A stretch of 60,832 bases of DNA, filler included, from Asterionella formosa (taxonomy: Eukaryota): the NCBI GenBank assembly GCA_002256025.1. It is 16 parts of 16 records of this genome, joined end to end, with 100 filler letters (N's around TTAATTAATTAA, not from the genome) between each part and the next. Parts side by side here need not be neighbours in the genome. Positions count along the whole stretch, not along the records: positions 3,823 to 7,541 come from NKIB01013952.1; 15 more parts are not named here. One strand, written 5' to 3'. The notes under the pieces were generated by a model. It was not told the DNA's origin. It saw nothing but the letters and a program-made list of their open reading frames with translations, and ran no database searches. Made by a program: the position numbers and the translations under genes. Positions 1,368 to 60,832 of this stretch are shown here, in pieces; position 1 is the stretch's first letter; each line of letters starts with the position of its first letter.

Positions 1368-1419
1368 TGACTCTCAGTTCAAAATCTTCCAAACGTTGAT
1401 TCTCAGTTTTTAGGTGGTA
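1368..1419 (-). mobile_element. DNA transposon terminus, TA|CCACCTAAAAACTG family (Tc1/mariner-pogo type)
   Basis: Reverse complement reads TA|CCACCTAAAAACTGAGAATCA, with a second subterminal copy 30 bp inward. The same terminus occurs at 29364-29422 and 49851-49904. Confidence 0.7.
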
Positions 1420-5826: not shown

Positions 5827-5905
5827 CCGGTACCTGGTACCAGGTAACAGTACCCTGGTACCAGGGTACCAGGTACTGGCCTACCAGGTAGTCTTTCATA
5901 CCGGT
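5827..5905. repeat. Chain of TA-CC(W)GG-TA units in the divergent intergenic region between the kinase gene and QCR6
   Basis: TA CCTGG TA CCAGG TA ... TA CCCTGG TA CCAGGG TA CCAGG TA ... TA CCAGG TA. Confidence 0.85.
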
Positions 5906-7641: not shown

Positions 7642-8885
7642 TGAAATGCACAACATGTTAGCCAGACTTTGTCAGGTTCTGTTACTCCATGTATTCGGAT
7701 GCCTGATTTTAAAATCCGCCAGCGTCCCTTTAGTATTCCAAAGGTACATTCCACATCTTTTCTAAGTGACTCCAGCCATTCAGACCATCTAAGTTCTTGT
7801 TCCGTTTCTGGGTTTTTGGTTGGAGGCACTGTTGTAGACCATTTTAGATATCCATTGTCAAGTATCAAAAAGCATCCACTATACTTTATGGATACAACTG
7901 CTCCATTCCGATCTTTTTCTTTAAGCTCAAACTCCACATCTTTTAAGGCATCTGCACCATTCTGGATGCCTCGAGCAAAAGTATCAAAGTTGATTAATGT
8001 TTTATCATTCCATCGACAAGGATGCCCCGTGGTAGTAGACAGGATCCTCCGGCGATGATTCACAGTAGCATTATAAGTCCTGGCTGTACAAGGAAGTTTT
8101 GATGATATATGCTGGTTCCGAAGCCGATTGAAGCATCGCTCTATTGACACATGTGTAGCATCTCTTGACCCAAGACATCCAGGGAAACCTGCCTGTGTCA
8201 TTTCAAACATGTGATGCTCTGCTTCCAATGGGTTTGTTGGAGTTCTAACATATTTTTTGTAAAGGATGGTACTTCCAACTTCAATAAAGGCGTGGAAGAA
8301 TTGCCTGTGAGTCTCTTGACTGATACCAGTATTCTTCTCAATGTCATCAAAAGTCCATCCTCTCCCAAGGTACCTGAATGCTCCTAAAACCATAAGTTCA
8401 AGGGGTGATGATGCCCTTCCTGTTGCATCAGGTCGAGTCCAGCGAGGAAACCAATTTGAAACTCTAGCATCAAAAACAAATTGGAGGAACTGGTTGTGTG
8501 GTAGTCGAAATCTGCGGCAGAATTTCTTTTGAAATGACAATGATTCAATTGCTGGTCTGGAAATGTATACTAGTATATACCAGTTTGACATCACAGGAGT
8601 TATCATTTGAATTAGCCCTTTTTCATTGATGTATTCACAGACCTTGTTCTTTCCTCTCACTCTAACTCTTGGGGGTAGAGGCATATTGTTAAGACTTTGT
8701 ATTTCTGGTGGAGTGGGCACGAGTAGAGTTCTTCCGAAATCAGACAAAAACTGAAGATACTGCTGAAAGTATTTCTCTGATTCTACCTCACCATTAGCAT
8801 GTAGACATTGTACAATGTTATGTGGGCGATGGTCACATGAATCCATGTGTGCCATGTTGGTGAAATGTGGGTTTGATGATGACAT
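7642..8885 (-). CDS. PIF/Harbinger DDE transposase, uninterrupted up to the contig end (3' truncated)
   Basis: FCRRFRLP, LELMVLGAFRYLGRGWTFDDI, FPGCLGSRDATH (D), LILDNGY (D), ESLRKDVECTFGILKGRW (E). Likely ATG at 8885. Confidence 0.92.
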
Positions 8886-9094
8886 GATGATTGTGGCGAA
8901 ATCCGAGATTATTTGTTGTTGTTGTTCTCGACAGTGTGGTCCCCTGGTACCTGGTACCAGGTACCAGAGTACCGTATAGCTATTGTTGTATCTATGTATG
9001 ATATACTGGTAAATGATGCGTCCTATATGTACTGATTCTACGATGATAATAATTGGGTTTCTAGTGACTACATTCAAAGTAGTCAATATGGAAT

Positions 9095-9297
9095 CCTACG
9101 TTTAGGTAACTTTGGGAAAAAAAACCTAAACGTAATGGGTTTGGGTAACTTATTGGGATATGGGCACGGAATCCCCTAAACGTAACGCGTTTGCGTTGGG
9201 TTTTTCACTCCCGTTAGCATCGTTTTTTAGGGTTACCGAAACCAAAACACTGTTTGGTTTGCGTTTTGGTCCACCGTTAGCAACGGCCTACCGGTAA
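9095..9297 (-). mobile_element. Putative 5' TIR and subterminal region of the Harbinger element
   Basis: Terminus GGCCGTTGCTAACGG (reverse complement of 9274-9288) abuts TA(CCGG)TAA. Subterminal CCTAAACGTA repeats occur in both orientations and CCGTTAGCA occurs twice. Confidence 0.6.
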
Positions 9298-11458
9298 GCC
9301 GCGTATTACGTGAAGTGACCATCATATACCGTACCCGATCTGCATGTGCTGACAAATATTCACACACCATTAAACTCAATGAACACTTGCCCCATGGCAA
9401 GTTGATGACCAACTGAAACGCCTGATGGATCGTCATCATCTTCGTCGCTTTCGTTGCCTCCACTATCGCCTGAGCTATCGCTGGGGTTGTCTGCCGGTCC
9501 AGAGGAACTGTCACTCTGACTCCGATCGCTTGCCTGCAGGTCTGGTGCGGGGATTCGGACCTCCTGAATCACTTCAGGCCGCATTCCCACAACTCCTTCC
9601 GCCTCAACGACATCATCTGGCGGCTCCAGAATCTCATCTTCTCCCTGGGCTGCTCGAATTTGCGCAATGTGGCTCGTTGAGCTGCAATGACACGCTTTGA
9701 GACCCTACCACCCTGTCGAACCCTCTGCTTGGTTCTTGGTGACATGATTATGACCCCAACACTGAACAACGATGCGCAAAAAGCGGACTCCCAGAACGCC
9801 GAAACAAACGTTGCTCGCTGGCCAGCAGTTTTTCCTTCGAATATTGCAACAATCAACCGATAAAGGCTACTGAAGAGGCTACGTGGGTCTGATAAACCGA
9901 CCACTTCTCCTATCCAACAGGCGAGGGGGAGAAAACTGAACCTAATGTTGCAATTAGCGCTATCGAAGGGTACCACATAAAAAGAAGTGATCACAAAGCA
10001 AAATCCAACACAACTTTGTTGGACGGGAAAAACTCGACATATTCCAGACAAGGATTGCCCACTCAAGGATGACCAAAATGCACGCTGGTCCTACGGGCTG
10101 CTAGTACCAGGCGCCTGCATGTAATAAGACAGACCTCGCAGGACTACACCTAACGGTTTCCTCGCCGTTGAGCATATGAAGTACCGGTAGACACCCTGAG
10201 GTATACCCAGAATTTACCATGATGTTACCGGTACCAAACCGGCAAACATCACGTTCCAAGAACTTACCGGTACATGCTTGTAGCTATTTACAAACAACCA
10301 TATACTGACATGAAGTCAATTGTACCAGGGTGGTACCCGGTACCGGTAGTCTGGTACCGTACCATTATGAATCGGTATTTGATACCATTATGCATACAGG
10401 GATGCAAGATGGATGTACTACGTCGTACTCCTATGAATGATGCATACCCATATTTACCACGACCGCCCAGTGTTTGCACTTCTGTACATTCATACCGAAA
10501 TAGAAATGCATATAAACTAGGAGATTTCTGGAATAAGGAGTCTTGAAACTCAAAATTGCGATTAGGGGGAGAACCCCCCAATCCAAAACCCCCTAATCGT
10601 AGCAAGGTTCGGAAACAAATTATTCTTCAAAATTAGATTTTGATAGTAAAGAAATTTATTGGCCAGCGCGAAACCGTTAGAATTTTCTAAATGTCTAAGT
10701 AATATTAGCGGGGAGTCGAATATGAGTTTTTGCCGGCTCCATGTTACATTTTCGGCAAAATGACCGCAACTTGCTGGTACTTGGTACAGGTACCTGGTGC
10801 CAACAAACAGATACTTGTAGTCAATCGACAAATATCTTCGGTTATACCGGTACCTGGTACCACGAACCTGTATCCATATTCATGTTGAGAGGCTGCGCCC
10901 TACGCATGTATCCACTTAGTTACCTGGTACCAGGGGTACCGATACAAGGCATAATACGTGTACCAAATAACTTCGGGTATACTCCTATATACTGTATTTA
11001 TATTATGTACAGTTATATTTTTTGATTACCGGTATATACCGTACCCGATCTGCATCTACAGACAAATATTCGCAATATTCGGACTTTCCCGGAACTCCCA
11101 ACTCCCTCCAGGTTTGGTAACAATGGGTCACATACACGGTATAGTGCCAGTGGTACCAGGTACGGTACCTGGTACCACACGCGAAGAATAGTTCAGCATT
11201 CGCATCGATTGAGCACATCGCTCGTCAAACATGTTACAAACGCATCATAATTATTTCATTGTATGCATCGTTACAAAAGTTCACAATTGCTTTGTTCTGT
11301 TAATCAACGCAAGAATGCAATATTACAAACTACAGCCTGGGGAAAGATTGTATGGTATNNNNNNNNNNNNNNNNNNNNNNNNNNNNNNNNNNNNNNNNNN
11401 NNTTAATTAATTAANNNNNNNNNNNNNNNNNNNNNNNNNNNNNNNNNNNNNNNNNNNN

Positions 11459-11937
11459 TCATTCTGCCTCTCAAGGGGAAGGATCCAGGGATCAGAGAGA
11501 GTAAGGAGGGCAGAGGTTTCATCCATAAAATCCCAAGTAGTGGTAAGCCAAGAAGGTTCAATATATTGTGCAATAGAAGAGTAGGAGTAAGTGAGAGGGG
11601 GGAGTGGAAAGCCAAGGTGGAGTTGAAGGGTATCCAGTGTGATTTGGAGTTGAACACCGACATTGTCCTCTGCATTAAGATGGCCCAGCAAATAAGTGAG
11701 GTGTGTTGTCCCCTGGCTCACCCAAAGTTCCGGAAGGTTGAAGCCGCTATAGTGAGAGGAGCCAAAGATCAATGCTCTTGAAGTGGTGCTTGCTATTCCC
11801 ATATGAGAGAGAAAAGTGCCAGTGTAGGCTTTTTGAAGGCGGAGGCACTGGTCTCTTGTGAAGGAAGTGACTGCAAGGGGATACTCTATGGCAGGACGCC
11901 ACATTGCGCTGAAGGCGGTATAGACTTGCGTCTGCAA
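11459..11937 (-). mobile_element. Non-LTR retrotransposon fragment (region after the RT core; Ambal-like diatom LINE)
   Basis: WRPAIEYPLAVTSFTRDQC..LQ..MGIASTTSRALIFGSSHYSGFNLPELWVSQG..LLGHL resembles the post-RT segment of diatom non-LTR elements. Truncated at both ends. Confidence 0.7.
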
Positions 11938-13698
11938 ATAAAAACTATCATATTTCCATGATGCATCATAGGATTGTGATTATCTGATCATAGTTTTTCG
12001 TTATATCATCTAATAATTTTGATAAATGCCTTTGTAATTTAAATAGTAATCCTTTTGACTACATATATTTAATTATTATATGTATTGTTTCTATTTGATT
12101 CCTGTATTCGAATTTCTTGGTGGAAGAATGTACCAGTTCAAATAATGTCATTTGGCTTGTCATTTCAATCCGTCATCACTCCGATTTTTGCAACAACAAC
12201 GAAATACTACTAGCGATGACAAGCGGAATGAATGTTTGCGATAACGTCTTCAATTTGTTGGTCAAGTGATCTTTATATCTTCGAGTAATCGTCATGTGCA
12301 GTGAACCTTTGTTCATAATCAATCAATTAAGAGTTTACAGGAGAGAAGAAACCATTCGAACTCGTAATGTTTCCGCACACAGCGCACTAAGTATATCCGT
12401 TTCGTCCACTTCAGCATGACAATCTTGCCAATCAACCCGTAAACAAACACATTCTACTTGTTCTCGTTGACATTTTCAATTCTCACATGATACTACATCT
12501 AGCACTACTATTGAGATTCAGCATAGAAGGAGATACGAAAATGTGCGTAACAGACTACTGTCCACATAGCTATAGTTATAGAATGATTCTGATTAGAATG
12601 AATTTCATTTTCATATCGCTCGCTCGTTTCTGCATTTGGCATACTGTACTTGAATTAACTATTGAACTTGTCCACATCTTTGATACCATCAAGAGAGCGA
12701 AAGCAAGTGGCTCTTTTCATTGTTGTTTGCTCGTAGGAAAAATTTGATATCTGTATTGTCATTTACGTGCTTGTTGGAATTGTCCGTTGCCTCAAACCTG
12801 CTTAGCGTGTGCATGCACACACTGTCGACTTGTTTTCAATGGTATGTTGTTCTTGTATTCACTGTTGAACTTGTCCGCATCTTTGCTACCATCAATAGAG
12901 CGACAAGTGGGTCTCTTCATTGTTGTTTGCTCCTGGAAAAGTCGGTGTCCGTGTCATCCTCATCAATAGAGAGACAAGTTGCTTCTTTCGTTGGAAAAAT
13001 TGGTACCCGTGGTATCATCATTCGCTCGTTCGAACCACTGTCTGTTGCCTCAAACCTGATTAGGGTGTGAGTACCGGTATGTGCACTGTCGACTTTAGTA
13101 CATTACAGGCGGAGTGACTTCGCTACTAAATTCCGTGATATAATAATATACCCTGTAGCACGATGCAGAATACATTTGCTTCCCAATCATCTCATCATGA
13201 TTGATAAGATGATACTGTGATATCATGATAAGGTTACATCGATGCATACATCACCAAAGTATGATATGTAATATTGAATAAAGTACATCACAGAGCTATG
13301 ATACATTGATCATAAAACTATGATGATTTTATAAAATGTTTATGATATAATTTTGATCAAAATATGATCATGTAAAAATAATACAATGACATTAAATTAC
13401 GATAAAATATGTATGCAAGTGTTACCAAGACATCATAGAAAATACATCAAGCAATCATAAAGTATGTTAATTAATATATATGTTTGTCGTATGATGTATA
13501 CAGTTAAAGTCAACAGTTAATATGATATTATTATACAGTGGATAGGATCTAAGTATACAGATGCGTTGATATGTACATCACTATAATATGATTTGTGACA
13601 GCATGGAACATGGATTGATGCATATCACATACAGGTATCCTCAACAACCAGCCATCACGTTCATTGTCGTGTCGTCTTTCCTTGTTTTAGCTATAGAT

Positions 13699-14436
13699 AT
13701 GCCAGCATGTGTATTGTGTAAACACTACGCTGGCAGAACATGCATATTACACTGTGCTCTGTTCAACAATTACTACACTCGGTTACCATCACACCAGTTC
13801 CACCTCCACAAGCGCCGCAATAAGCTCCGCAAGAAGCTCCGCATTTCCCTTCCACTGTTTTACATCATAGTCTTCTGGTCCTTTGACAACTTTCCAAATG
13901 GCATTTCACGGATTTCATGGAAAGGATCAGTCAAACAAGAAACGAGACTTACTTCCATTGTTTACAATACACGACTTTATGTTTTCGGAAAAGAAGATGA
14001 AGAAAGTTATGAAATCAATCGAAGATTCCTTTGAATACACTCAAAGATCAAATGAATTTCAACAGATTCATAATACTCCAGAAAAAATTAATGAAGTATG
14101 CCAAGCGATACAATAGTGGCTGAGATTGAAAAAAAGGAAAGATTGCTTTCGAAGAGGAAACCCAAACAGTTGGTCTTCGTGGATGAAGACTCTATTCGTA
14201 CAGAGTCACAGTTCCACCATCCAGTGTTGTATTTTTCTCCTCATTCTACCGAAATCGCTGATAATGAAGAAGAACTCAGTGATTGTCATTCATTTGATGA
14301 ACAAATTCATGCGATGAATGGAAATATCGGCGGAAACGTGGCTGACAACACTTCAGAAGTAGAAATGGTTGAAAAGTTGCAAAACCAAGAAACATACTTC
14401 CATGCCTATCTCGGTTTATATACTCCTTGTGGCTAG
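13699..14436 (+). pseudogene. Frameshifted ORF remnant of unknown function, convergent with PGRL1 (also at 55208-55940, minus strand)
   Basis: Overlapping ORF pieces (SSAFPFHC..MAFHGFHGKDQ.., ..EKKERLLSKRKPKQLVFVDED..) carry different breaks in the two copies. Confidence 0.4.
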
Positions 14437-14456: not shown

Positions 14457-15176
14457 TTATGCTTTCGGAATGGTCGAAGCACGCAATGTCTTAAGTTGGA
14501 CACTGAATTCAGTTTTGCAGCTAGGACACTTGACTTTAGCAATGTCAGTGAAACCCTCCACACCCAAGAACTTTCCAAAGTAGACGCGGTTCTCAACTTC
14601 ACAGCTGGGGCAAGGCCCGAAAGCAATGAATTTACCAGGGAAGAGAAGCTCCTCTGTAATAAATTTAGATCCGGTGTAGAGGAACAGAGTGCCAATGAGG
14701 AGGAAGAACAACGGGTTGATTCTCAACACAGTCGACAAGAGTTCGAAACCAATACCAAGCCAAACACTTGTGAGAACAATAATGGCGGGAAGGTAGAGAA
14801 GATTTGATCTGAATTGGTCTTCTATCAATGTGACAGTGCAAATTCCAGTGTCGATGTAGCATTTTGGAGATGTTGAGACTGCAAACTTCGATCCAGTTTC
14901 CTTGAGCTCCGTCTTCAATGCGTCAAACTCAGCATCTGGCATCATCGGTTCACCTTTCAAGTATAACTGCATGGCGGCAAGATATGTGGCTTCCTTTCGC
15001 TTCATGACAACCATGTCAGATCCGTTCCATTGCAAATCTTCCTTCAATGGGTCAAACTCGTCATCCTTGAGCATTTGCCTTCCAGTGGCATAGTAGGACT
15101 GAAGCGCGTCCAGAAAGATACGCTCCTTTTCGGCTACTGTGAGACGAATGAGTTCCCCACTTTCCGGATCGACGAC
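14457..15176 (-). CDS. PGRL1: PGR5-like protein 1 (copy A, 5' end cut by the contig end)
   Basis: EKERIFLDALQSYY..LKEDLQWNGS..GEPMMPDAEFDALK, two TM helices, GPCPSC and KCPSC Cys pairs. Confidence 0.9.
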   Translation of the reverse strand, partial: VVDPESGELIRLTVAEKERIFLDALQSYYATGRQMLKDDEFDPLKEDLQWNGSDMVVMKRKEATYLAAMQLYLKGEPMMPDAEFDALKTELKETGSKFAVSTSPKCYIDTGICTVTLIEDQFRSNLLYLPAIIVLTSVWLGIGFELLSTVLRINPLFFLLIGTLFLYTGSKFITEELLFPGKFIAFGPCPSCEVENRVYFGKFLGVEGFTDIAKVKCPSCKTEFSVQLKTLRASTIPKA

Positions 15177-15276: not shown

Positions 15277-16904
15277 CCGAAATTGAAGGAACAACGAGGA
15301 AGGTCTCGGTCACTCTGGTGAAGGAAGAGTTTAGATATTTTGTTGAACAACTGGTCAAACAGTTTTCGATTGGAATTACCCTTTACTGTTTTGGGACGCC
15401 CGATCATATAAGAATATAGCTCCATGAGGTGATCCATTATTCCTTCTTGAATGGAATGGAGTTTTTCAGGAGGAACGTGCCCATTAACACCAAGAGGATC
15501 GCCACCAAAACACAACTGATACCAAAAGGGATAGATGAATCTTTGGCTCACCTTATCCAATAAATCTTTTATGCCCCGGATTAATAGTTCCTCGTAATCA
15601 ATCTGACCTACAGGACTGCATTCATGAGATGGATTGTCCGTTTGATCAAACGGACAATCACATTCACGACACATTCTGGCAGTCTTTAGATATGTTTTCT
15701 TTCGTCCGCATTGTCCATCTAAACCTTCAGCATCACCGAGAATTAGACCAACCGGAACTTTCACATTAAGTGTAAATTGATTGCCTCCGAAATTGAAAAT
15801 GTGTTTGAATCCACCAGCTTGTTGGACATTCTTGACCCCCTCAAGAATCACACCAAGGACAGCGTGATAATCGGATTCCTTTTGATCAGGGGTTAGGGAC
15901 TGGATTTCAGATAGACTTGATGAGGTCAGCTTTGGGATCAATCCGATTGGCCGCCATGCATTGACCTTATTTCTCACATTGGTAGTAAAAATACCAAGTG
16001 ACATTAGGACAGGCTCCATTGTGTACTTTCCTTTTTCAACCGTGTGTGTCTTGTCAATAAAGAATATGAGTGGAACAAGGAAGTCATTTGGCTGAGAACA
16101 TAAATATTCATGGGCATCTATCCACCAGGTACCAGTGTGAAATTCGGATCTGACACTGGTGGGTTGCGGTGCTTTACACGGATTGACGAAATCAAATGAC
16201 ACATTTTGTGGTGACATTAGTGTGTCATTTGTCAAGAGATTCTTAACCTGAGCCATGAAATCAAAACATACAACATCAATCAGTTTTCCATCATGCAATA
16301 TGGCCTGTTTCACCTGGGGAGTTAAATCATTCATGTTAAATCGGTTTTGAAATTCTTTCAGAACAGTGGTCCTCCTGGGAGGACAAGATTCAAAAATGAA
16401 TCCAGCTTCCTGAGCTGTGCTGCAGAAACTCATGATTTGATCATACATATAAAGAGGAGAACGGGTGCCGAGCAAAAGACTAAGCAGTCGAGACTTCATA
16501 ACATCGCCAACTGAGAATGGTATACCAGGATCGGCGGAGGAAAACCTAATCCCTGTGGTGCTCAGGACTGGAATAGTATTGGTTTCATCCTGTACCACTA
16601 TTTCGCTTGTATTTTCTTCATCTTCTTTTTGATCAATGTCATATATATTGGTATGATCGCCAAAATGTAGTGTTTGAACATGACAAATTTTGGCCCTTTT
16701 CTTTAATGACGACGAAAAGTCATCAGCAGCTGATGGTGGAGATTGATGAAATCCATCATATTCTTCCTGACCGTCGTCTGGACCAGTTGCTGGTTTACGA
16801 AACAACTCAGCAGCTGTTTTGCATTCAGGGCTATGTGCGTAATGACGGTGAAGGGAAACAAATGGACCCTTACCACATATCAAACAGCAATCGTCGTCGT
16901 TCAT
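15277..16904 (-). CDS. Plavaka-like (CMC/CACTA-related) transposase with an N-terminal C2H2-type zinc finger, 3' truncated by the contig end
   Basis: CLIC..LHRHYAHSPEC, PLIFFIDKT, AWRPIGLIP, ILGDAEGLDGQCGR, RMCRECDC, PPEKLHSIQEG, HQSDRDLPR. The ORF has no stops. Confidence 0.8.
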
Positions 16905-17899
16905 GGTGATAAAACACGATTAAATAGCGATTATGTACCGATATTTGTTTAATAGAAAGAGACAACGGCCAATATAGATATTTGATTTATCATTTGTAAA
17001 ACCACAAAATAAATTATCTCATTCAATTCGATTTAACACAGCTATACATCCAATGCTACTTTCACTAAGGCCAGCCACTTGCTAGAGATATGACTGTTTA
17101 CTATTTGAAGTATCTCGGAAATACCTCTCATTTTCGACTGACTACAACGATATTCGATGAACACTAAAATAGTACCGGTATGCGACTCCTTTTTCTATGG
17201 AACTACGGGTGCCAGTATATATAAAACATATCTACCAACGTTTCTTTTGATTTGATTTGTTAACCGAATTTCATTTGATAAAATAATCATTGTAGACAAA
17301 TTGTAGCCTTTCCGAAAAGAAATTGCTTTGGTTGCAGCTCTTATTTTCTACTCAGGCCGACTACAATGACATGATCATCAGATGAACGCGAATACATGCA
17401 ACAGCTATTTCTGTGTAAAAAAATTCGCATATTCGATAACGATTCACCATGTTCGTCAGATTTTCGGGAGGTCTGCATTGCTCGCCAAAAAGTATACTGA
17501 CAAAGCATAGACTGCGCCCCAGCTTTTTGTTATGTAGAATGTACACATGGCTAGTACAAAGCAAAGGTATAGGAGGAGGACCGTCCGCGCCAGGTTTCTT
17601 TTAATGGAAAACAGCTACTGGCTAGAACGTGGTGAAGAAACAAATTATCACTTTCGTGGTAAAATGCATTATGCATTGTGGTTGTTTTTATTGCTGTCGT
17701 TGTCATTGACGTTGTCGCTATCTGTTGTTTCTGCTGTTATCCCTTTGGATCTAATTGTTTGAAACAAGGAGCTGGCTGGTGGTGCATTCTGGTTACTGTG
17801 GCTGTATACCCTTCTCTTGATTGTTCTTTGCCCTCCCTTTGAACTGAATATGCATTGTTTGTTAAGAAATACAAAAAGGTCTTGTGTGAGTTTAAACAG

Positions 17900-29363: not shown

Positions 29364-30431
29364 TACCACTTAAAAACTGTAAGCCACCGCTACGGCGACT
29401 TTTGAACTGTAAGCCACCGCTAAACGGAGTAAACGCACGGTTTGAACTTAGTTTACAAGATACGCTATTTATTGTCACGAGCGAGTTGTTCAGATTTATA
29501 TAGCGAGTAAATACTTCCGTACTTGTATTGTTGCATTGTGTACATTGTTAATTAGGTATTATCGCCCAAAGGTTGCTGTCGACGTGAAATTGCGAAAATT
29601 GGATATTTTCACGTTTACTCGATTGAGCAAGCATCACCTTTTATATACGTATTCAGGTATGAGAATATTCCTCCGCTAGAAAACTAATTTAGTATCCTCT
29701 AAAATTTATTTAATATGACTACGACGGCATTGCGCTTTCGCTCGTGCGCCATAATAAAGAGATAATTTCATTAATGGAAAACGTCAAATAGGAATTCCTG
29801 GTGCGCCCGAATTATGAGTACAAAAATTAAATGCAAACACACAACAATCACCCATCACCCATCACAACACCAACACCATGACATCGAAAGCGCCTCGACA
29901 AGGCAATGCCTTGCCTCGAAAGAAATTGTCTCCTGAAGAGTTGGTCAGTGTTCAGATTTGTCTTAACAATGTGATTAGGGAGCTATAAGCTAAGAAGGCT
30001 AAGAATGGTGGAAAAATGCCTTATGGTGCTATTTCTAGGACAGTATCAGCTAAGCAATGCATTTTCCCTTGGATATCTGTTAACCAAGTGAAGAATGAAC
30101 TAAAACAAAGTGCTAAACTAGAAGTTAAGTCTAGTACTACTAGTATGTATACTACTTCTGGTTCGTCCCTCTTTCAGCCATCAACTGCAACCATGGTGTC
30201 TACATTGACACCTGACCATTGTGGCCCTACTAAACCCCAACTCTTGAATGCTGATGGCAGCTTTGCCTTGTTATTTCCCAGTAATCTCATTCATAATTCA
30301 TATAAAATTGTCGAGGAGGAAGAAGATGACAACAATGAAGGTGTGAGTGAGCATTATGATAGTCAGTTTACAATGATGGGCACTTTGGCATATGAAACTG
30401 GAAACAATGGTGTGCTTACCTGGGGAAGTTT
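29364..30431 (+). mobile_element. Left end of a TA|CCAC-family DNA transposon with a disrupted ORF (29878-30431, in-frame TAA at 29986), possibly the N-terminus of a pogo-like transposase
   Basis: TA|CCACTTAAAAACTG terminus; AACTGTAAGCCACCGCTA repeated at a 30-bp period; ORF ..NGGKMPYGAISRTV..FPWISVNQVKN. Confidence 0.55.
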
Positions 30432-32659: not shown

Positions 32660-34241
32660 GATTCTGTTCAACAGGACAACAACAAAATTCATCAGCTGTA
32701 TTTCATGATTCAGCAAGCATGTATAGTTCAGCGGTCCCCAGCCTCCTCGCTCGCTCTGCAACCGCTTTTTGTTTGTGTGTAATGTAATCTCGCAAAAAAA
32801 TTCCAAGTATGTGCAACAATTCCGAATACATATGTCTTCTAGATTGCATTTGGAAGTTGGTAAAAGTCTCCTTGGTGAGTAAGTCTTTCTTTGCTTGTGT
32901 GAGGTGCATCTTGAAACATCCATTCTGTTTCATTGAATTTTCCAACTTGCCAATATGATGTTCTATAGGGGACCCCAATACACATGCCATGCATGGAGGT
33001 GATTATTGATGTATTCAAGGAAGGTCAGGTCGAATCGGGATCCGTGGCAATCAAGCAAAAGGAAGGGAGGGATGCCATCTGACCGGTCAAATGTGTTCGA
33101 TGAATCAATTTTTTCGATCATTGCAACCAAGAGTTCAGCAGAGATAGATCCAGGTTCTAAGCAGCCAAACATATTCGGCAACATGGTTCCGTTTAGCATG
33201 CATATTGTTGGCAGGAATATTGACATGAGTAGCTACCAACACATTCAGCAGAGGGATCAAGTCCTTGAACCCAACCAATCTCCATTTGTTTTGAGGCGAA
33301 AATAATTGCACACATTACAGTGCAGCCATCAGCAGCAGTGAATCTTAAAACAGAGGAATGTGCATCCTTGAGAGCACATCGTTGTTGTTGTCTTCCGGCG
33401 TCATTGACTTCAAACTTCTCACCCCCAATCTGTCCATCCTTTGCCTGGCTGGTGTTGGTTCCGACTTAGCTTCGTTTAAAAAACCAGCTTATCTAGTCTG
33501 GTCAATTTATATTTTGTTTGCAATCTAAATGTCTTCCCTTCAGTTTCAACAACACCACCTTCCTTGTTGTTTCACACCTCCTTCTCCAGCTACTCAGCAA
33601 TCTTTCCTTCGCCAACTCCTTGTAAATTTCGGGATAAATTACTTTGAAGTTCTGGTAGGTACACCAGTCCACCTGTTCGTTTTCGCCTTAACATTCAGCC
33701 CATTCCGCTTCTTGAATCCTTGCCAGTACCCCTTTCCCAATTCGTTTGTCAAATGCTACTTATCCCTGAATAAAAAACAATGATTATGACGCCAATTTTG
33801 AATGTTTGCCATTATTTACTTTCTGGTTACAAGTGAATTTGCAAATTGTAGCCCTTCTTGCTATGTGATGGGCAAATGCATTTTGCCTAACTGATCAATG
33901 AGCTCCACAATGTTATGTTCCACTGCAAGCATGGGTGAGATGTGAGCTGTGTTTGTCTCAGTTTTGTTGTTTCGGTTTGCAGGTGTTCTAACTGTTTCGA
34001 AATTATTAATGACAGCACGAGGAATGATACCAAGCGCCTCCTTTTCTCTAAATAATAGTATAGCTACAGGTAGCTAATAAGCGTATTTCTCTTGACTTGT
34101 GATTCTCCTCCCCCTTTTCTTTTTCCTCTTCTCTCACCCTCATGTATTCTGCTGCCAAATTGAAAATGCATTCTTTCACTTCTCAGACATGATGGAGATG
34201 GCTAGTACACCACTGGTAACTCCCTTTGGAAAACCATCATA
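32660..34241 (-). pseudogene. Degenerate pogo-like (Tc1/mariner, DDE_1-type) transposase
   Basis: LGKGYWQGFKKRN, WCTYQNFK, GTNTSQAKDGQIGGEKF, FTAADG..MCAIIF, PPFLLLDCHGSRFDLTFLEYIN, QNGCFKMHLTQAK, GWGPLNY; many stops and frameshifts. Confidence 0.82.
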
Positions 34242-40960: not shown

Positions 40961-41428
40961 GGCTAGTTCGCATCCAACATACAAACTATCTAAAATAGGT
41001 TTTCACTGTTAACTGAAAGGGCAATGTAGTGGCGAAAAGCGCTCCGATAGCTAGTTTGTGAATTGCCTAGGTAATTGCTTAGCATATTTAGCTCTACTAG
41101 ACTAGGCATACCGGTAACGGTACTACCAGTACCAGGTACCAAGGTACTGGTAATGGTAAATAAGAGACCTATATATATAGATAGCTACATACAAAGTTTT
41201 ACATTTTCTACATGTCTAGTCATCACGAAAAATAGAAGAGGTAAACAATACCATCGAAGCTATTGAGACATATCATAGTCAAGGATCGGTCTTGACGTCT
41301 GATCCTCCAGAGAGTTATCTCACCGATGGGGGTTTATGCATCTATGTTATAGGGCTCTGATTTGCGAGTGTGAAGATTTGATATAATAATCATCGGCGAC
41401 GAAAGTCTCAGAAATGGAACCTTTCTCC

Positions 41429-42237: not shown

Positions 42238-43404
42238 GCTGTAAGATTACAACTTATGAGACTGCAGTTAAGGTTGTTTCCGATGTACTTGGTATTGCTA
42301 CTAACTCAAGTTCTGGCACATTTCGAATACAAGTACCAGCCAGTGAGTGTATACCCATACCTGGTAAGTACTCTGGTAGCAAGCAGCAGGCTCGAATTCT
42401 TCAATGGTTGAGAAATATCTGAAGATTTGCTTGCTATTATAAAGGTCGGATTCATACCAGGTACCTGGTACATTCCAATGGGACATAATTATACATCGCC
42501 GGTATCAGAGAGGCTGAAGTTGCCGTTACATCCACTATCTGGCAAATTAGTCAGGAGCACGAACACGTCCAGTCCGCAAAATGGGGTCATACATGCGGTC
42601 AGCAAGATCCTGAAACGAAATTGCACCGTGCAGGTTTTTTGAAGTTGATGACAACGAGATCTTTGTAAATTGCATTCTATACCGGTAGCCACCTTTGCAA
42701 CGAGAGATGCTGCCGATGTTTCCACATGCTCACCGGCGATATGTAACTAAAAAGAATGTGTGCACATTTTATATTGTGTATAAAATTCATATGCGTAAAA
42801 GCGGTATTGCTACCTGTATAATGTGAGACGGACGCATTGTCTAATGCATATTTTGAATTTTATCATGAAAGAGAGAAGATTCTCTTGCGAAGCGATACCG
42901 TACTCCGCTATTATTCATGACCTCGTGTGTAGAACACCGGTAATTGAATAATTAAATATTTATTTATACAAACATGCGTGCATGTACCACGGATGCATGG
43001 CATCATGCACATTTTGAATTGTGGACTCCATTGTAATCCAATGAGTCGAATCTTGCATTGCCACACCAATCAGCTGTCTAACGAGATTGATGATTGAAGA
43101 TTTCTAAGGAAATCATAAGTGGAAATTCGAAGAGAGTCTTAAAACGTCTTTGTGAAAAGCAAAGATGCATGGAAAGAAAGCATTTAGTTTAGATTATAAT
43201 TTTAGATTATCAATTGAGTAAACAGTGTGTTAATTGACAGGAAGGTCAATAAGTTTATTTAGCAGGAAGGCTAGAAGAATAGAAGAGAGAAAAAGTAAGT
43301 GGTACTAGGTAGTAATAGAAGCAAGTAAGAGCCTACCGTATGAAGAGACCCAGCCCATGGGAAGAAGTATGGACCTTTTTAACAATGCACATTTTAAATT
43401 TTTC

Positions 43405-44584: not shown

Positions 44585-45078
44585 CCAACTTCAACTTGCT
44601 GACTGCGGCGGTCTTATTGTTGCTAACTGCTGACTTGATTTGCTGAAAATTTGAAATATTCGCTGACTGCTGACAGCTAACTTCAACATGCTGACATCAA
44701 ACAAGCTAATTTGTACATAGGAAGAGACCGACTACCAATACTGGTGTACGAATTGTGTCTACTTTTCATATTAGAATAACAATGGAAATGCATCATCTTT
44801 TTGTTGTTGGGATACTAAAAGCGATGCCTTCTACATCGTTCATACTATACTATTGGGAGTAACATAGACGTACCTGGTACCTGGCTGGTACTCCGTACAT
44901 GATAATAAACTGTGAAATCAACATTGATGCCTAAAAAATTCATTGCTATCTACTTTGTGATATTGCTACCACCATGTACTGGTACTATCGTAAAAATGCT
45001 GACTTCAACTTGCTAACTACTGACTGCAGACTTGATTTGCTGAGATTTGAAAAAATTGCTGACTGCTGACTTCAAGTT
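44585..45078. repeat. Two blocks of GCTGACT/GCTAACT-rich direct repeats (44585-44700, 44996-45078)
   Basis: ACTTCAACTTGCT.ACT..GACTTGATTTGCTGA.ATTTGAAA..GCTGACTGCTGAC occurs in both blocks. Confidence 0.75.
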
Positions 45079-46940: not shown

Positions 46941-48780
46941 ATGCCACAGGCGACTTTACAAGATACAGTTGCACATGGGAACGCCCCTGCTCAACAGTAT
47001 ACTCCAATTGGTAATGAACATCGAGTGCAAGTAACCCTTGCAGGCCAAGAGTACCGTCCAATTAACGGAGACATCTAGCTTCGTAAGAAGACCGTGATGG
47101 AAACCTGGAAAACAGTGCATGAGAGCTTCCCAGAGTGCAGCTCTCATCGCGAAATCACACAGCAATCTTTGCTTGAAGATTTTCGTCCCCAAATGACGAC
47201 GACTCCAATTGAGCATCAACAACAAACTCAAACTCCTAATATCGGTGAAGATATTTTAATGATGCAAATGAATGTATCCAACGTTGGCATTCAAAATGAA
47301 AGTCTTAAAAGGCTTTCAAACTTTGCTACGAATGAGAAAAATCGTGTTGCTATTGCTGCAACAGGAGGCATTGATGCCATACTATTGGCTATGCAAAGGC
47401 ATGCATCAAATGCAGATGTTCAAGAAAATGGTTGTGGAGCACTTATGAACTTGTCTGTGAATGGCAACAACCAGGCGTTGATTGCTGAAGTAGGAGGCAT
47501 GGATGCCATTATATTCACTATGCAAAGCCATGTGTCCAATGCTTATGTTCAAGCACATGGTTGTGGAGCACTTATGAACTTGGCTATGAATGGCAACAAT
47601 CACGTGGCTATTGCTGCATCAGGAGGCATTGATGCCATTCTATTGGCTATGCAAAGTCATGTATCCAATGCTTATGTTCAAGAAAATGGTTGTGGGGCAC
47701 TCATTAATTTGGCTACAAATGAAAACAACCAGGCGTTGATTGCTGCAGCAGGAGGCATGGATGCGATTCTATTGGCTATGCAAAGCCATGTGTCCAATGC
47801 TTATGTTCAAGAAAATGGTTGTGGAGTGCTTCGGAATATGGCTAAGAATGGTAACAACCGGGTGTTGATTTCTGGAGCAGGATGCATTGATGCCATTCTA
47901 TTGGCAATGCAAAGTCATGTATCCAATGCTTTTATTCAAGAAAATGGTTGTGTAGCGCTTTGGAACTTGGCTGAGAATGACAAGAACAATTTTCTGATTG
48001 CTGCAGCAGGAGGTATTGATGCCATTATATTGGCAATGCAAAGTCATGTTTCAACTGCTGATGTTCAAGAAAATGGTTGTGTAGCACTCATTAACTTGGC
48101 TAATAATGCGAACAATCAAGTGGCAATCGCTGCAGCTGGAGGCATTGATGCCATACTATTAGCTATGCAAAGTCATGTGTCAAGTGGTGATGTTCAAAAG
48201 TATGGTTGTGGAGCACTTTTGAACTTGTCTGTGAATGGCAACAACAAGGTGGCGATTGCTGCAGCAGGAGGTATTGATGCCATTCTATTGGCTATGCGTA
48301 GCCATGTGTCCAATGCTGATGTGCAAAAATATGGTTGTGGAGCATTTCTGAACTTGGGTGAGAATGGCAACAACAGGGTGGTGATTGCTACAGCAGGTGG
48401 CATCGGTGCCATTCTAGCTATTGGCTATGCAAAGTCATGTGTCAAATGCTGATGTTCAAAAATATGGTTGTGGTGCACTTGGAAACTTGGCCATTAATGA
48501 CAACAACAATTTTCTGATTGCTGCAGCAGGAGGCATTGATACCATTCTATTGGCTATGCAAAGGCATGTGTCAAATGCTTATGTTCAATCATATGGCTGT
48601 GGGGCACTACGAAACTTGGCTGTAAATTACAAAAACAAAGGGGCTATTGTTGCAGCAGGTGGAATCAATAGGGTTCTGATGGCTATGCGCAATCATGTGT
48701 TTAATCCTTTCATTCTAATATTTGGTCTCGGAGCACTTTGGAAATTGACTTTGAGCGACCGCAACAAGGGTTGCTATTGA
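46941..48780 (+). pseudogene. Armadillo (ARM) repeat protein gene, about 12 repeats of 42 aa (126 bp), disrupted
   Basis: Repeat IAAAGGIDAILLAMQSHVSNA.VQENGCGAL.NLA.N..N. The upstream ATG at 46941 is in frame but blocked by TAG at 47076; a 4-nt insertion at 48417-48420 shifts the frame. Confidence 0.85.
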
Positions 48781-49461: not shown

Positions 49462-49850
49462 NNNNNNNNNNNNNNNNNNNNNNNNNNNNNNNNNNNNNNN
49501 NNNNNTTAATTAATTAANNNNNNNNNNNNNNNNNNNNNNNNNNNNNNNNNNNNNNNNNNNNATGCCATAGTAATGATGCGGAAAAGTCTTGAAACAAGCT
49601 AATTATTTATATAACTTCAGCTTCTCCTATGTGTTGAAAAAGTCATGCAGGCTCAAAGGGGTAAAACTGATTTGGACCAAAAACCGTCGACAGCCAATTT
49701 TGGGCTACTATAACTAAAGAACTGGTACGAGATTGCAGTGTTCAAGTACGAACAATGCTGTTCCTTATATGCACAGGAAGAACTTTGTCTAATACAGATT
49801 TATAATATTACAAATATTCGTCTCAAACCGTGTGATTACCCCGTTTTGTT

Positions 49851-49904
49851 ATGACTATCAGTACAAAACTGAAAGTTTGTATGACTCTCAGTTTTTAGGT
49901 GGTA
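49851..49904 (-). mobile_element. Third terminus of the TA|CCACCTAAAAACTG family
   Basis: ATGACT(A/C)TCAGT at 49851 and 49881 (30-bp period), then TTTTAGGTGG|TA. Confidence 0.7.
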
Positions 49905-51067
49905 CCGGTAGTACATAATCTTGGTTCATGACGATGGAAGACAGGATGAAACTAGTACCAGTACCGGTGTACCTGGTACCGATACTGATTTTACATGCTG
50001 GTATACAGTATATCCAATACTTGTGGCTCAAGTGTGGCTGGCGTGTTTTTACAAGACCGGAATACTTCAGCCAATCTGGAGCAGGTGAGTAAATTCAATT
50101 CAACCAATCAGAATATGTGTTGTGACGCGGTAACATGACCTGGAGTCTTGTCGGACTGAGAATTATTCAGCAAAACATACCTACGCAAGACAGTAAGTCT
50201 ATGAGAACGTTTTGCAAATACAAATTCCGATTCCAATATTTTGGCGAATGTTGAAAAAGCCGATTGGGTCGACTTTTTGGAGGAGGATTGCTCTACATCT
50301 GCGGGGTTTCATCAAGATTAAAGTAGATAGCCGTGTACCCTATAATGTCACGTGTACCCTATAATGTCAGGAGTTAACTTCTGAAGAGAAACTGCAGTTA
50401 TGTACCTAGTTCTCCACTAGCTAGTTTTCGACAACACTTTAATCTACTTTTAGATTAATCTCTTTCAATGTTGTGATTACTTCAGATTACTTTTTCTATC
50501 AATCTTACCAAATTCTATCAATCCTGCCAGGTATCTTAGATTTTAAAAAAGCTTCGTAGCCCCTTTTTTTGATTATTTTTGCGATAGTTACGATTCTACA
50601 ATACATAACTGCAGTGTCTTTCCAGAAATGAGGTCCTTAGCATATCCGAAGATAGAACATACCCCTAAGTCGACCCATGACTGTATATAAGCATGTGCAA
50701 AGTGGTCGTACTGGTGAAAGCTAAAGTTACCTTCAACTATTTTATGTTGTACTTAATGTGTGGATTAAGGTACATCATAAAATTATTTTGGGAAAGTACA
50801 GCCCTTGCAATGTGTAACTGCGGGGCCGCAACCTTAAATTAGAAATATCAAGGAAACACAACAATGACTGGGGTAATAGAGGGGCGGTCCGAAAATAGTA
50901 AGCAAAAGTAAGCCAGTCTTGCTTGCTTGCTTGCGTTGCTTTATTCTCTCCAAACTCAAAATCATTCTCCTTTTCTGGCCGAAGTGATGAAAACAACTTA
51001 TCTTAGGGTAGGTCTCAACAGAGATACAAAAATTTTTAAAAGGTTGCTTCACCCAATTTTTTGTTGC

Positions 51068-51915: not shown

Positions 51916-53869
51916 TTCTTTTCATCACTTGTAAACGACTTGCGCAATGGCATCATTTGAATCTTCAGACAATGAAACTTCTTATGCTGCAGCAAGGAAA
52001 CAGGATGACCAATGGGTTGCAAGTATCACTCCTGCTGGTGCTGATTATTTCATTGACAACTAAGGGTGTTTGACTTGTATACAAGGTACCAGATACTTAC
52101 TGGTAAGCAAAAAATTTTGAAATCTCATCACCATCATGCTTCCATCATCCCATCTCACAATGACTCCATTTTGCGGCGTCTATACAAGCAATTTAATCTA
52201 GGCTGATTAAAAACTTGTTTCACATCTTTTGCTTTACTTAATCATGTTATTGTTTAGTCGCCTTTATAGTGTCTAATCTGCTGATAGCATAATCGCTTTG
52301 AACTGTGAATCGATAAATTAATCATTAAAAATGCGCTAGTGGCTATGTTAGAGTTATTACAACTTCTCTTTTACGATTGTATTTACTTTATCATGCTCAA
52401 TAGAGTATATACCCAATAGCAAAGCGTCGTTTTTCATTTTTCACAAAGTCATAAACCATGTGTATTGTGTAAATCTCTACAGTGACTGTAAGAACAAGTA
52501 CTATATATGGTCTGTGTAGAAGAGCCTAGTGGTTGACATTATTTTGGACTTATACCATCAAATATAGTGTATCTAGCAAGGAAAATACTGTACCAAAGGT
52601 CAATATTTGTAAGATCCATCAAACAAAGAGGATGTTTTTAATTTGCAGATTGTAGATGGGTGAAGATGATGAGGGAAGGAGACTGAATGGTGCTGAAAGT
52701 AGGCACCAGACAGGTTGAAATTTCCAACTTCCAATAATTTTGATTATACTACTAGTATGGTATGAGAAGTATTGAAGGAGCAGCAACCTTGATAGGAATT
52801 TCAACCAGAAAATCTTAATATTATGTATTTACAGGAAATATTACTGGTACAATCTTCATGGTACAGAAAAAGATACATTTTAAACTAATAGGTAGACAGT
52901 AACATTATACCTCTATCAAAGTATACTGTCATTGTTGATGCAGTACTTTCGTTTGACAACTGAAAAACTAAATGTTTGTTTAAGTGAGCTAGGAAAACAT
53001 GCACATGGCCAAGAAAACACATCAAGATTTCCAATATCAAAATTGATGAGCATTGCGAAAAGGCCTGAAAATAAAATACTACGTGTAAAAATTGAGGTTC
53101 CACATGAAATACCTCACTTTCCATTGATTGTTTTTCCATTGATGGCAGATGATGTCTATGAGAGCTGCTCTCCATCAGGGGCATTTTCACGAGACGGAAT
53201 GGTCGTCGAGACGACACCTGCATCAATAGTTTTGCTAATGTGCTTGGTGTGTTTTCGNNNNNNNNNNNNNNNNNNNNNNNNNNNNNNNNNNNNNNNNNNN
53301 NTTAATTAATTAANNNNNNNNNNNNNNNNNNNNNNNNNNNNNNNNNNNNNNNNNNNNTTATGTATTGCGAAAATTTTCTTTTCTTTTAATGTGCTTTACT
53401 ACGACGTATCTTTTCATGAAGCAGCAGGCATTGTTTGTTAACATGACAGAACGATTTCAAAAATATATATGCCATGCATATAGTAATAAAATTTGTAAAT
53501 ATATATATATATATTAAGTGTTATACATTTATAAAATTCAAACGCGCTCTCGGTATGGAACATCTGATATGGTTGAGATGATCATACTCGCATATACATA
53601 ATTCAAAAATACTCAATGCACTATATTTCCATTGTTTTCCACGACTACGTGAACCGGAATTGTTTCTGAAATTTGTTTGCATCGATATTTTCTACGTCCG
53701 TTGAAACTAATTATTTAGACCGTTCAATTGCCGCAAGGGTTTTGGTAGCAAATTGTTTAAGCCCCTTTTTTGGTTGGGAGCTCTTCATGTGTACCAGTAC
53801 ATCATATGACAATAACAATATATCATATATATATACAGAGTACCAGTAGCAGGTAGTAAGTGATATACT

Positions 53870-54295
53870 GGGGGTAGTCGGAGTAGTAAACTAGCAACAG
53901 AACACCATATGTTCAGGACTGTTGGTACTGCAGTCATCATAGTTTTAGGATCGAATGATCATAAAACTAAAAACCAAAAGAACACCATATGTTCATGATT
54001 GTTGCAATCACAGTGGGACAGTAAATCATCATAGTTTTAGGATCATATGATCGTAAAACTAAAAACAAATAGAACACCATATGTTCATGACTGTTGCAAT
54101 TACAGTGGGACAGTAAATCATCATAGTTTTAGGATTGTATGATCGTGAAACTGAAAAGCGGTACCGGTAGTCAGAGTAATAAGCAAGCAATAGAACACCA
54201 TAGTAAATCGTCATAGTTTTAGGATTGTATAAATAGAACACCATATGTCTATGACTGCTGCTACTACAGCGGGACAGTACCGGTAAATGAATTTA
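53870..54295 (+). repeat. Irregular tandem repeat (about 5 units) directly upstream of PGRL1 copy B
   Basis: AGAACACCATA at 53899, 53979, 54071, 54192 and 54235; ATC(A/G)TCATAGTTTTAGGAT in most units. Confidence 0.9.
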
Positions 54296-54356
54296 AGATC
54301 ATCAAACTTTAAGGAAGACAACGACAACAGCTGGTCGTGTTGCTGGTCCACTTTTA

Positions 54357-55187
54357 ATGGCCAAAGAAGGAAGCGACAAAAAGATCACCATTACAAGCGG
54401 AACGAGAGAAATCGCTTATGACGCCAAGTCTGGACGATTCTTTGAGACTAACTTGCATGAAGAAGAATGCATTCCTGACAAGGAATACTGTGTCGTCGAT
54501 CCGGAAAGTGGGGAACTCATTCATCTCACAATTGCCGAAAAGGAGCGTATCTTTCTGGACGCGCTTCAGTCCTACTATGCCACTGGAAGGCAAATGCTCA
54601 AGGATGACAAGTTTGACCTATTGAAGGAAGATTTGCAATGGAACGGATCTGACATGGTTGTCATGAAGCGAAAGGAAGCCACATATCTCGCCGCCATGCA
54701 GGCATACTTGAAAGGTGAACCGATGATGCCAGATGCTGAGTTTGACGCATTAAAGACGGAGCTCAAGGAAACTGGATCGAAGTTTGCAGTCTCAACATCT
54801 CCAAAATGCCAGATCGACACTGGAATTTGCACTGTCACATTGAAAGAAGACCTTCCCGCCATTATTGTTCTCACAAGTGTTTGGATTGGTATTAGTTTCG
54901 AACTCTTGTTGACTGTGTTAAGAATCAACCCGTTGTTCTTCCTCCTCATTGGCACTCCGTTCCTCTACACCGGATCTAAATTTATTACAGAGGAGCTTCT
55001 CTTCCCTGGTAAATTTATTGCTTTCGGGCCTTGCCCCAGCTGTGAAGTTGAGAACTGTGTCTACTTTGGAAAGATCTTGGGTGTGGAGGGTTTCACTGAC
55101 ATTGCTAAAGTCAAGTGTCCTAGCTGCAAAACTGAATTCATAGGCCAACGTAAGACATTGCGTGCTTCGACCATTCCGAAAGCATAA
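54357..55187 (+). pseudogene. PGRL1: PGR5-like protein 1 copy B: no signal peptide and an 8-codon in-frame deletion
   Basis: Near-identical to copy A but lacks QFRSNLLY (24 nt, ACC microhomology). The upstream in-frame KTTTTAGRVAGPLL looks like a transit-peptide remnant and is preceded by TAA (54294) and the tandem repeat. Confidence 0.8.
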
Positions 55188-55890
55188 AAAGTCGCACACA
55201 ATGAACTCTAGCCACAAGGAGTATATAAACCGAGATAGGCATGGAAGTATGTTTCTTGGTTTTGCAACTTTTCATCCATTTCTACTTCTGAAGTGTTGTC
55301 AGCCACGTTTCCGCCGATATTTTCATTCATCGCATGAATTTGTTCATCAAATGAATGAGAATCACTGAGTTCTTCTTCATTATCAGCGATTTCGGGAGAA
55401 TGAGGAGCAAAATAAGACACTGGATGGTGGAACTGTGACTCTGTACGAATAGAGTCTTCATCCACGAAGACCAACTGTTTGGGTTTTCTCGTCGAAAGCA
55501 ATCTTTCCTTCTTTTCAATCTCAGCCACTATTGTATCGGCATACTTGCTTCATTATTATTTTTTCTGGACTATTATGAATCTGTTCAAATTCATTTGATC
55601 TTTGAGTGTATTCAAAGGAATCTTCGATTGATTGATTTCATAAGTTTCTTCATCTTCTTTTCCGAAAACATAAAGTCGTGTAGTGTAAACAATGGAAGTA
55701 AGTCTCGTTTCTTGTTTGACTGATCCTTTCCATGAAATCCGTGAAATGACATTTGGAAAGTTGTCAAAGGGCCAGAAGACTGTGATGTAAAACAGTGGAA
55801 GGGAAACGCGGAGCTTTTTGCGGCGCTTGTGGAGGTGCAACTAGTGTGATGGTAACCGAGTGTAGTAATTGTTGAACAGAGCACAGTGTA

Positions 55891-56026
55891 ATATGCATGT
55901 TCTGCCAGCGTAGTGTTTACACAATACACATGCTGGCATATACCGGTATATAGCTAAAATATGCATGTTCCGCCAGTGTAGTGTTTACACAATACACATG
56001 CTGGCATATACCGGTATATAGCTAAA
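55891..56026 (+). repeat. 68-bp tandem duplication specific to copy B
   Basis: ATATGCATGTTC..GCATATACCGGTATATAGCTAAA occurs twice here and once in copy A. Confidence 0.92.
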
Positions 56027-60662: not shown

Positions 60663-60832
60663 TGTATTGGGTCAGCGAGACTACTATGACAAGGACAGGT
60701 CGACTGAAGGGAGATTAAGTAAATAGCGAATGATCGACGTCGACTGGGGAAAAAACAGTTCCCTTTGTCGTCCATGCCATTGTCAAGATACCTGGTACCA
60801 TACCGGCACCTGGTACTACGGTTTGCTAACTA

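Follow-up and report, generated by a model that had tools for sequence, protein, structure and literature searches.

The window analysed here (60,832 nucleotides of the diatom Asterionella formosa) consists of 16 contigs of about 3.7 kb each, joined by N-linkers, from an assembly of 68.4 Mb in 15,436 contigs. In one of them, a chain of short palindromic units, mixing CCWGG, CCCTGG, CCAGGG and CCGG between TA dinucleotides, occupies positions 5827..5905, between divergent genes for an AAA_33 protein and for QCR6. Eight further tracts, like the first without strand, were listed in the first-pass annotation of this DNA, and all nine are found where it placed them. They lie at 8944..8976, inside a PIF/Harbinger element, towards its 5' side, and one 7-nt unit longer than in L199, the single paralogous copy that can be aligned; at 10781..10940, abutting the end of a CWG-duplicating element; at 11151..11176; at 41109..41158, preceding an ORF start by 256-305 nt; at 42454..42472, a CCAGG/CCTGG dimer that precedes an ORF start by 217-235 nt; at 44870..44900; at 49953..49985, 50 nt off the end of an element whose terminal inverted repeat (TIR) starts with CCAC; and at 60789..60820, 127-158 nt upstream of the start of a TAF5-like ORF. 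Runs of units had been described as present in most contigs, which holds for single units (11 of 16 contigs) and not for the listed chains (six of 16). Some of the gene labels have to be changed as well: the supposed kinase matches AAA_33 in Pfam, and the names 'HA' and 'EB_dh' find no Pfam confirmation on the truncated ORFs. The PIF/Harbinger element (7642..9288, minus strand), which is cut by a contig end, encodes a DDE_Tnp_4 transposase and has a TIR starting GGCC, TWA-type flanks, and a CCGG unit in its flanking duplication (9289-9296). An unclassified high-copy repeat spans 11929..14396 (plus strand), with a second copy within contig 53358-57042.

The units are far more frequent than a second-order Markov model built on the window predicts. 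TACCGGTA is found 27 times for 0.57 expected, TACCWGGTA 21 times for 0.50, and TAGCTA 30 times for 10, so that the enrichment anticipated by the first-pass annotation is present in the window for all three words; the first two are its most over-represented 8- and 9-mers. Genome-wide, the CCWGG dimer TACCWGGTACCWGGTA has 5,576 sites, compared with two for its reversed control, and the two units share the same orientation in 3,074 of these dimers (55%), the other 2,502 being of mixed orientation. Fixed tiles from five large contigs, 200 kb in all, contain 79 CCGG and 71 CCWGG units, and the density in the tiles examined is about 750 units per Mb.

The direction of change was read from four repeat families, represented by 80 copies and 117,561 aligned bases, each copy being compared with the majority sequence of its family. 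The set comprises 29 copies of the unclassified repeat (one duplicate excluded), 29 copies of a 1.4-kb element (without one duplicate and without copies that matched over a short length or were identical in sequence), 10 Harbinger copies, and pogo copies from 12 of 15 loci. Among insertions no longer than 30 nt (n = 245), lengths of 3, 4, 5 and 6 nt account for 59, 48, 21 and 32 cases, respectively, versus 22 cases of 1 nt, and the commonest deletion length (n = 106) is 1 nt (36 cases). Nearly half of the six-nt insertions (15 of 32) add CCGG+TA at a TA, in varied contexts, with just one at GGTACC. Against these 15 gains stand three apparent losses of CCGG, each common to 4-8 copies; these may in fact be gains of greater age that the majority sequence has retained. 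Two gains of CCWGG+TA and one of a triple unit were also recovered, all at GG-TA-CC, and one homologous site in the 1.4-kb element holds anything from no unit to about 20 nt of mixed units, depending on the copy. The units are, therefore, gains of X+TA at a pre-existing TA, and the polarity is that of insertions, as first proposed, rather than of deletions. An assembly artefact is an unlikely source, the units being dispersed, polarised, and decayed. The unclassified repeat (L026-L055) also contains 3-bp duplications with a C/G filler of 1-2 nt at non-TA sites (AAG-C-AAG, TTG-GC-TTG, TGG-CC-TGG), as well as TA-C-TA and TA-GC-TA gains; these non-CCGG duplication-plus-filler insertions are probably scars of further families, Harbinger-like and others.

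Two classes of unit can be told apart by their neighbours. In the fixed tiles, GG stands at the left or CC at the right of 54 of the 71 CCWGG units, compared with 9 of the 79 CCGG units (Fisher p = 2e-16): CCGG is mostly solitary, and CCWGG mostly chained. As CCGG units make new TAs and yet rarely chain, new TAs alone do not make chains. The data support at least two element classes behind the units, CCG-ended for CCGG and CCAC-ended for CCWGG.

For the chained CCWGG class, the best source is the CCAC-TIR family, whose existence had been guessed in the first-pass annotation and which proves to be real: the TIR CCACYTAAAAACTG marks 460 ends genome-wide, and its control none. Flanks were taken for 43 of the first 100 listed ends, 41 of them distinct, with two pairs of near-duplicates. 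In 36 of the 41 distinct flanks, the end is bordered by TA, in keeping with a TA target duplication. G precedes this TA in 32 of the 36 and GG in 26, while 14 ends abut a unit and eight a full TACCWGG; the corresponding background, itself drawn from loci already chain-rich, is 8.5% for GG and 3.2% for a unit. Frequencies of G at -1, G at -2 and T at -3 are 0.86, 0.68 and 0.54 at 28 CCAC ends and 0.82, 0.63 and 0.44 on 142 sides of CCWGG units, versus 0.25, 0.21 and 0.32 at all TAs. To judge from these flanks, CCAC elements sit preferentially at G-TA-C or GG-TA-CC, and the flanks of CCWGG units are alike.

The window holds three ends of this family. The 5' part of one element (29366..30431, plus strand), which includes the start of a transposase ORF (29989-30429), is inserted in a TACCGGTA unit, at its second TA, and shows 94% identity over 812 nt (29405-30210) to a 2.9-kb element in L204, in which 24-bp TIRs surround a broken ORF. 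A second end (49562..49902, minus strand) likewise lies at a TACCGGTA unit, and the third (1404..1417, minus strand) has the flank G-TA. The copies read closely are all broken, and in L206 two elements stand head-to-head with one TA in common. At the chain bordering 49562..49902, which lies in a repeat, the CCAC element of the window follows the first unit, in the position where the paralogues L161 and L185 have CCAGG/CCTGG units and common downstream sequence; L180 contains a different CCAC subfamily further along the same chain. The filled window element, one flank of which is off-contig, and the unit-bearing L161 and L185 make a suggestive pair of insertion and scar.

The transposase of the CCAC family has 154 matches in the genome and 233 homologues elsewhere; among the 120 homologues listed for a transposase of this genome, the one organism named is Fragilaria crotonensis, with two entries. 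Sequencing runs that contain the DNA are mostly metagenomes of freshwater or algal origin, in keeping with a freshwater diatom. An older, frameshifted relative lies at 32693..34067 (minus strand), with 33-40% amino-acid identity to P0001, a CCAC-family protein of 723 aa. No meaningful Pfam match was obtained for 61 aligned members of the family, none of which matches DDE_1, and BLASTP detects no similarity to the DDE_1 pogo transposase of the same genome. Three aspartates (D79, D228 and D266) are conserved in at least 90% of the 61 rows, with DD37D spacing, in a motif layout that we take, by eye, to be pogo-like. The protein is, nevertheless, not a Passer-like pogo transposase, which would combine a DDE_1 match with DD35D. 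In the structure model (pLDDT 87.6), the top matches are the catalytic domains of Mos1, SETMAR and Sleeping Beauty (Z 11.2-12.5), with integrases at Z 9.0 or below; the match to Mos1 (Z 12.5, rmsd 3.3, 194 aligned) is one at the level of the fold. A Foldseek search with this model gave no match at E<=0.001, the best being 7e-3. The protein is thus predicted, on the strength of the model, to be a transposase of Tc1/mariner fold that works like the Tc1/mariner/pogo type.

CCG-ended elements are found among the pogo transposons. A search for DDE_1 returned 93 matches in the genome, and led to two TA-flanked families with TIRs starting CCGT (2,460 and 2,331 bp) and a third, also TA-flanked, starting CAGT. 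In the first CCGT family, the ORF is intact (DDE_1, E 1e-21), and numerous copies are 99-100% identical. Contigs often break at the pogo copies L115-L124, which show this level of identity, and their family was probably very recently active. Comparison of a filled copy (L132) with an empty paralogue (L109) reveals the TA duplication, and the family of L132 is pogo by its DDE_1 transposase, its TA duplication and its short TIRs; for the CCAC family, no empty site was seen, and the comparison is between a filled element with its far flank off-contig and unit-bearing paralogues. GG precedes TA at none of 19 ends of the CCG families, and the flanks of CCGG units are near background. A or T occupies -2 in 87% of 23 pogo ends and 64% of CCGG units, which is a loose match. 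Since the match is loose and further CCG-ended ends exist beyond the two pogo families, CCGG is assigned to a class, and not to one family; other CCG or CCA families may contribute to it. The words TACTGGTA and TACCAGTA, with 67 sites compared with 2-12 for other one-base variants, are probably a mixture of CCGG units altered by CpG decay and 4-nt scars of a CCA family, given that their flanks are partly G/C-rich. Two same-orientation ends of the form TA-CCGTACCCGATC, at 9329 and 11039, belong to a small CCG-ended family with six sites in the genome. CCGTACCCGATCTGCA was discarded as a major family, having only six sites. DDE_3 (Tc1-type) has no match among 16 genome candidates, which falls short of demonstrating its absence. 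The PIF/Harbinger element of the window is a host of scars and not their source.

The units are probably excision scars of a stereotyped kind, left by TA-duplicating transposons of the IS630-Tc1-mariner/pogo type, and the chains probably grow by a target ratchet. In sequence terms, the units look like footprints on both counts, being composed of TA, terminal TIR bases and TA, and arising as gains at a TA. The proposal of the first-pass annotation that CC-terminated, TA-duplicating elements insert and excise repeatedly is borne out as far as the gain polarity and the matching elements go; excision itself is what we infer from them. The Sleeping Beauty scar is TA-CWG-TA, and Tc1/mariner overhangs are 2-3 nt long. 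Excision would leave short 3' overhangs of terminal TIR bases on both flanks, in agreement with the TIR-derived overhangs described in PMC4423477. CCA ends would be unable to pair over three bases, and one A would be trimmed or mispaired, giving CCAGG or CCTGG; CCATGG, the outcome expected of a full 3+3 join, is present but rare (in L161, and once in 200 kb). CCG ends would pair on CG, or join 2+2, and give CCGG. A CCWGG scar at GG-TA-CC would yield GG-TA-CCWGG-TA-CC, turning one preferred target into two, and the enriched site would draw further insertions, with a gain of about 7 nt per cycle. The CCWGG class would then be the only one to chain because its scar rebuilds the target of its element, whereas CCG-ended elements lack the GGTACC preference, so that their scars would stay solitary. 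The idea that each event provides a new TA, and thereby makes the arrays grow, needs to be amended accordingly in one respect: the arrays do grow, and the probable driver is the re-created GGTACC target, and not any new TA. Against the scar model, a scar length of 5 nt exceeds the 2-4 bp reported for Tc1/mariner footprints (PMC7913693), and in rice, excision footprints are heterogeneous and not stereotyped (PMC4423477).

The chains could instead be mainly microsatellite-like, the product of 7-bp tandem duplication (slippage) at GGTACC-centred seeds on which elements merely land. This explanation is unlikely. A scar formed at TGGTACCA, the preferred target, coincides letter for letter with a 7-bp tandem duplication. 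Relative to L199, the tract at 8948 has gained a perfect 7-bp duplication; the same may be true of the two clean CCWGG gains that were polarised, and same-orientation dimers are in excess. In the fixed tiles, 30 of the 71 CCWGG units have the five matching flank bases compatible with a fresh duplication, but the other 41 do not, 23 of them having two matching bases or fewer, and 75 of the 79 CCGG units lack the four flank bases needed (four have them). Scars simulated from CCAC flanks appear duplication-like in 35% of cases, compared with 42% observed. Moreover, the units within a chain vary (CCGG, CCAG, CCAGGG, CCATGG), and pure runs do not extend far (130 monomers, 37 dimers, seven trimers and one tetramer). 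The chains are not head-to-tail copies of one unit, as a microsatellite would be, with 45% mixed dimers and heterogeneous units; the argument that these mixed dimers rule out slippage is weakened, since two duplications of the palindromic TGGTACCA seed also give mixed dimers. Target preference predicts more T-A than A-T dimers, and the difference observed (19 versus 9) is not significant (p = 0.09). Slippage, finally, gives no reason why the repeat unit should coincide with transposon termini plus TA. It probably adds a minority of the units to those left by excision, and is likely incapable of being their main source.

A non-transposon process of break and repair, in which a TA-cutting nuclease and a stereotyped addition of C/G write the units and the CC-ended elements are coincidental, is slightly less credible again. 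It would accommodate the many other 3-5-nt duplication-plus-filler insertions without matched elements (TA-C-TA, TA-GC-TA, AAG-C-AAG, TGG-CC-TGG), but both filler and flank preference follow the element families, CCA ends going with G-TA-C flanks and CCG ends with none.

Many of the runs of units were placed by the first-pass annotation 50-350 nt upstream of start codons, and five tracts do lie 59-305 nt before the first in-frame Met, among them 5827 (203-281 nt, AAA_33 protein) and 8944 (59-91 nt, Harbinger transposase). The tracts at 10781, 11151, 44870 and 49953 are not tied to such a start, 10781 and 49953 being at or near transposon ends. Chains had also been reported as absent from intact coding sequences, and none is present in the eight long ORFs checked, one of which contains a solo TACCGGTA (5237). 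With crude gene models (ORFs of at least 200 codons, and an upstream zone of 500 nt), the fixed tiles contain 1.94 units per kb upstream, compared with 1.09 downstream and 0.79 elsewhere, and 0.07 within ORFs; for tiles picked for chains (190 kb), the values are 3.7, 0.9, 1.4 and 0.14. CCWGG units occur upstream only for 15 ORFs and downstream only for four (47 ORFs pooled, p = 0.019). The same comparison is not significant for CCWGG in the fixed tiles alone (26 ORFs, 8:2, p = 0.11) or for CCGG (13:7, p = 0.26), and gives 6:8 for the TAGCTA control. The claimed 5' concentration, thus, stands as an approximately two-fold excess that is weakly significant, and falls short of significance in the unbiased tiles. 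The 5' bias is modest, and the exclusion from coding DNA strong; insertion into open chromatin, together with removal from coding DNA, would probably account for the excess. That the units are cis-regulatory sites (transcription-factor motifs), kept in promoters by selection, would also fit this upstream excess, but is very improbable, as they are private to single repeat copies, present inside transposons, and different between homologous sites.

The CWG-duplicating element against the 10781 chain is a miniature element (MITE) with a CAAG-type TIR, CAAGTTGCGG. The window contains the 5' part of a 1.4-kb non-coding copy (10218..10773, minus strand), with its CWG target duplication at 10774-10776; the family, whose core is about 88 bp and whose copies reach 1.4 kb (window 10218-10773; L062-L111), has 934 ends genome-wide. 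The 3-bp repeat at paired ends is direct in 20 of 35 cases, inverted in two and neither in 13. In L073, two such MITEs have just CAG between them, and flank conservation falls outward over G, W, C, C, A, T, G, G from 0.90 to 0.55. Taken together, the paired-end repeats, L073 and the outward decay indicate a CWG duplication, and insertion into TAC-CWG-GTA units, and the CWG duplication at paired ends led to the rejection of this MITE as a TA-duplicating, CCWG-ended source of CCWGG. That the CCWGG units are footprints of the MITE itself is scarcely tenable: it is abundant, and of its 57 TA-flanked ends 33 are at GG-TA and 23 abut a unit, but its duplication shows that it inserts into a pre-existing unit, and the doubled-CWG footprint expected from it has no occurrence in 200 kb. 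In the scar model, the MITE would use finished units as targets. No autonomous partner was found, the 1.4-kb copy being non-coding and the Harbinger element of the window being rejected for this role, as its TIR differs and its flanks are TWA. NuwaI elements (PHIS superfamily) also duplicate CWG, but usually have TIRs starting GGG and were reported only in animals (PMC4482050); the MITE starts with CAA, prefers TAC-CWG-GTA, and shows a NuwaI-like duplication outside animals.

Footprints, re-insertion beside a footprint, and the preference of pogo elements for a GTAC core and for the 5' ends of genes are all known. Sleeping Beauty, ZB, Passer and Mos1, elements of the Tc1/mariner/pogo type, likewise leave a TA duplication around a few terminal TIR bases; the units described here differ in being 4-5-nt palindromes of nearly fixed sequence, numerous (about 750 per Mb), and chained. 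ZB leaves footprints of 0-4 bp (PMC7913693), as does Passer, a pogo element that targets the TA in AAGTACTT and is biased to gene 5' ends (PMC9976928). Passer (DD35D) resembles the CCAC family in the GTAC core of its target; the CCAC family, in contrast, is DD37D, lacks a Pfam match, prefers GGTACC, and has a predicted scar that rebuilds the target. For Stowaway elements in the beta-amylase gene of Triticeae, re-insertion at the TA beside an earlier footprint, with repeated gain and loss at one site, has been documented (PMC1925063). That case concerns one locus over the history of a tribe and, in the accessible portion of the article, no scar-made preference, whereas thousands of loci are concerned here. 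A literature search, mostly outside subscription papers, found no report of these motifs, of genome-wide scar chains, or of scar-made targets in diatoms. Nor did it find one of stereotyped scar chains at genome scale, or of a scar that rebuilds the target of its element.

Footprints are usually treated as rare, heterogeneous, and invisible, and here they would provide a record of past excisions that can be counted. They also make up a large class among the small insertions. Should the ratchet hold, it would be a route to a new kind of tandem sequence, produced by cut-and-paste cycles instead of slippage, and would account for insertion hot spots with no need of targeting factors of the host. 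Motif finders would mistake TACCGGTA and TACCWGGTA words for promoter elements. The Pfam-invisible transposase lineage, with its 233 homologues, offers a possible GGTACC-biased integration tool. As a tentative extension, which we regard as possible but rather doubtful, the CCAC lineage (DD37D) may have evolved a preference for the sequence of its own scar, building, autocatalytically, safe landing sites in promoter DNA that other elements use (the CWG MITE, further pogo, Stowaway-like), and the growing chains would contribute, directionally and to a major extent, to the cis-regulatory variation of this diatom.

Several other features were observed. TA-flanked ends starting CTCCCTC, which we take to be Stowaway-like, occur in L203, L009, L015, L018, L025, L150 and L182, several of them at GG-TA. 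They could be the source of TACTAGTA (21 observed, 2.9 expected), for which double CpG decay of TACCGGTA is a rival origin. Two near-identical ORF copies without a Pfam match adjoin the unclassified high-copy repeat (14457-15176 and 54297-55187), and pieces of the former are also found in L044, L045 and L049-L051; these ORFs presumably derive from a host photosynthesis gene, PGRL1-like in appearance, and gene capture is possible. Lastly, an ORF for a Plavaka transposase lies at 15277-16919, and an Armadillo-repeat ORF made of tandem units of about 126 nt at 47079-48780.
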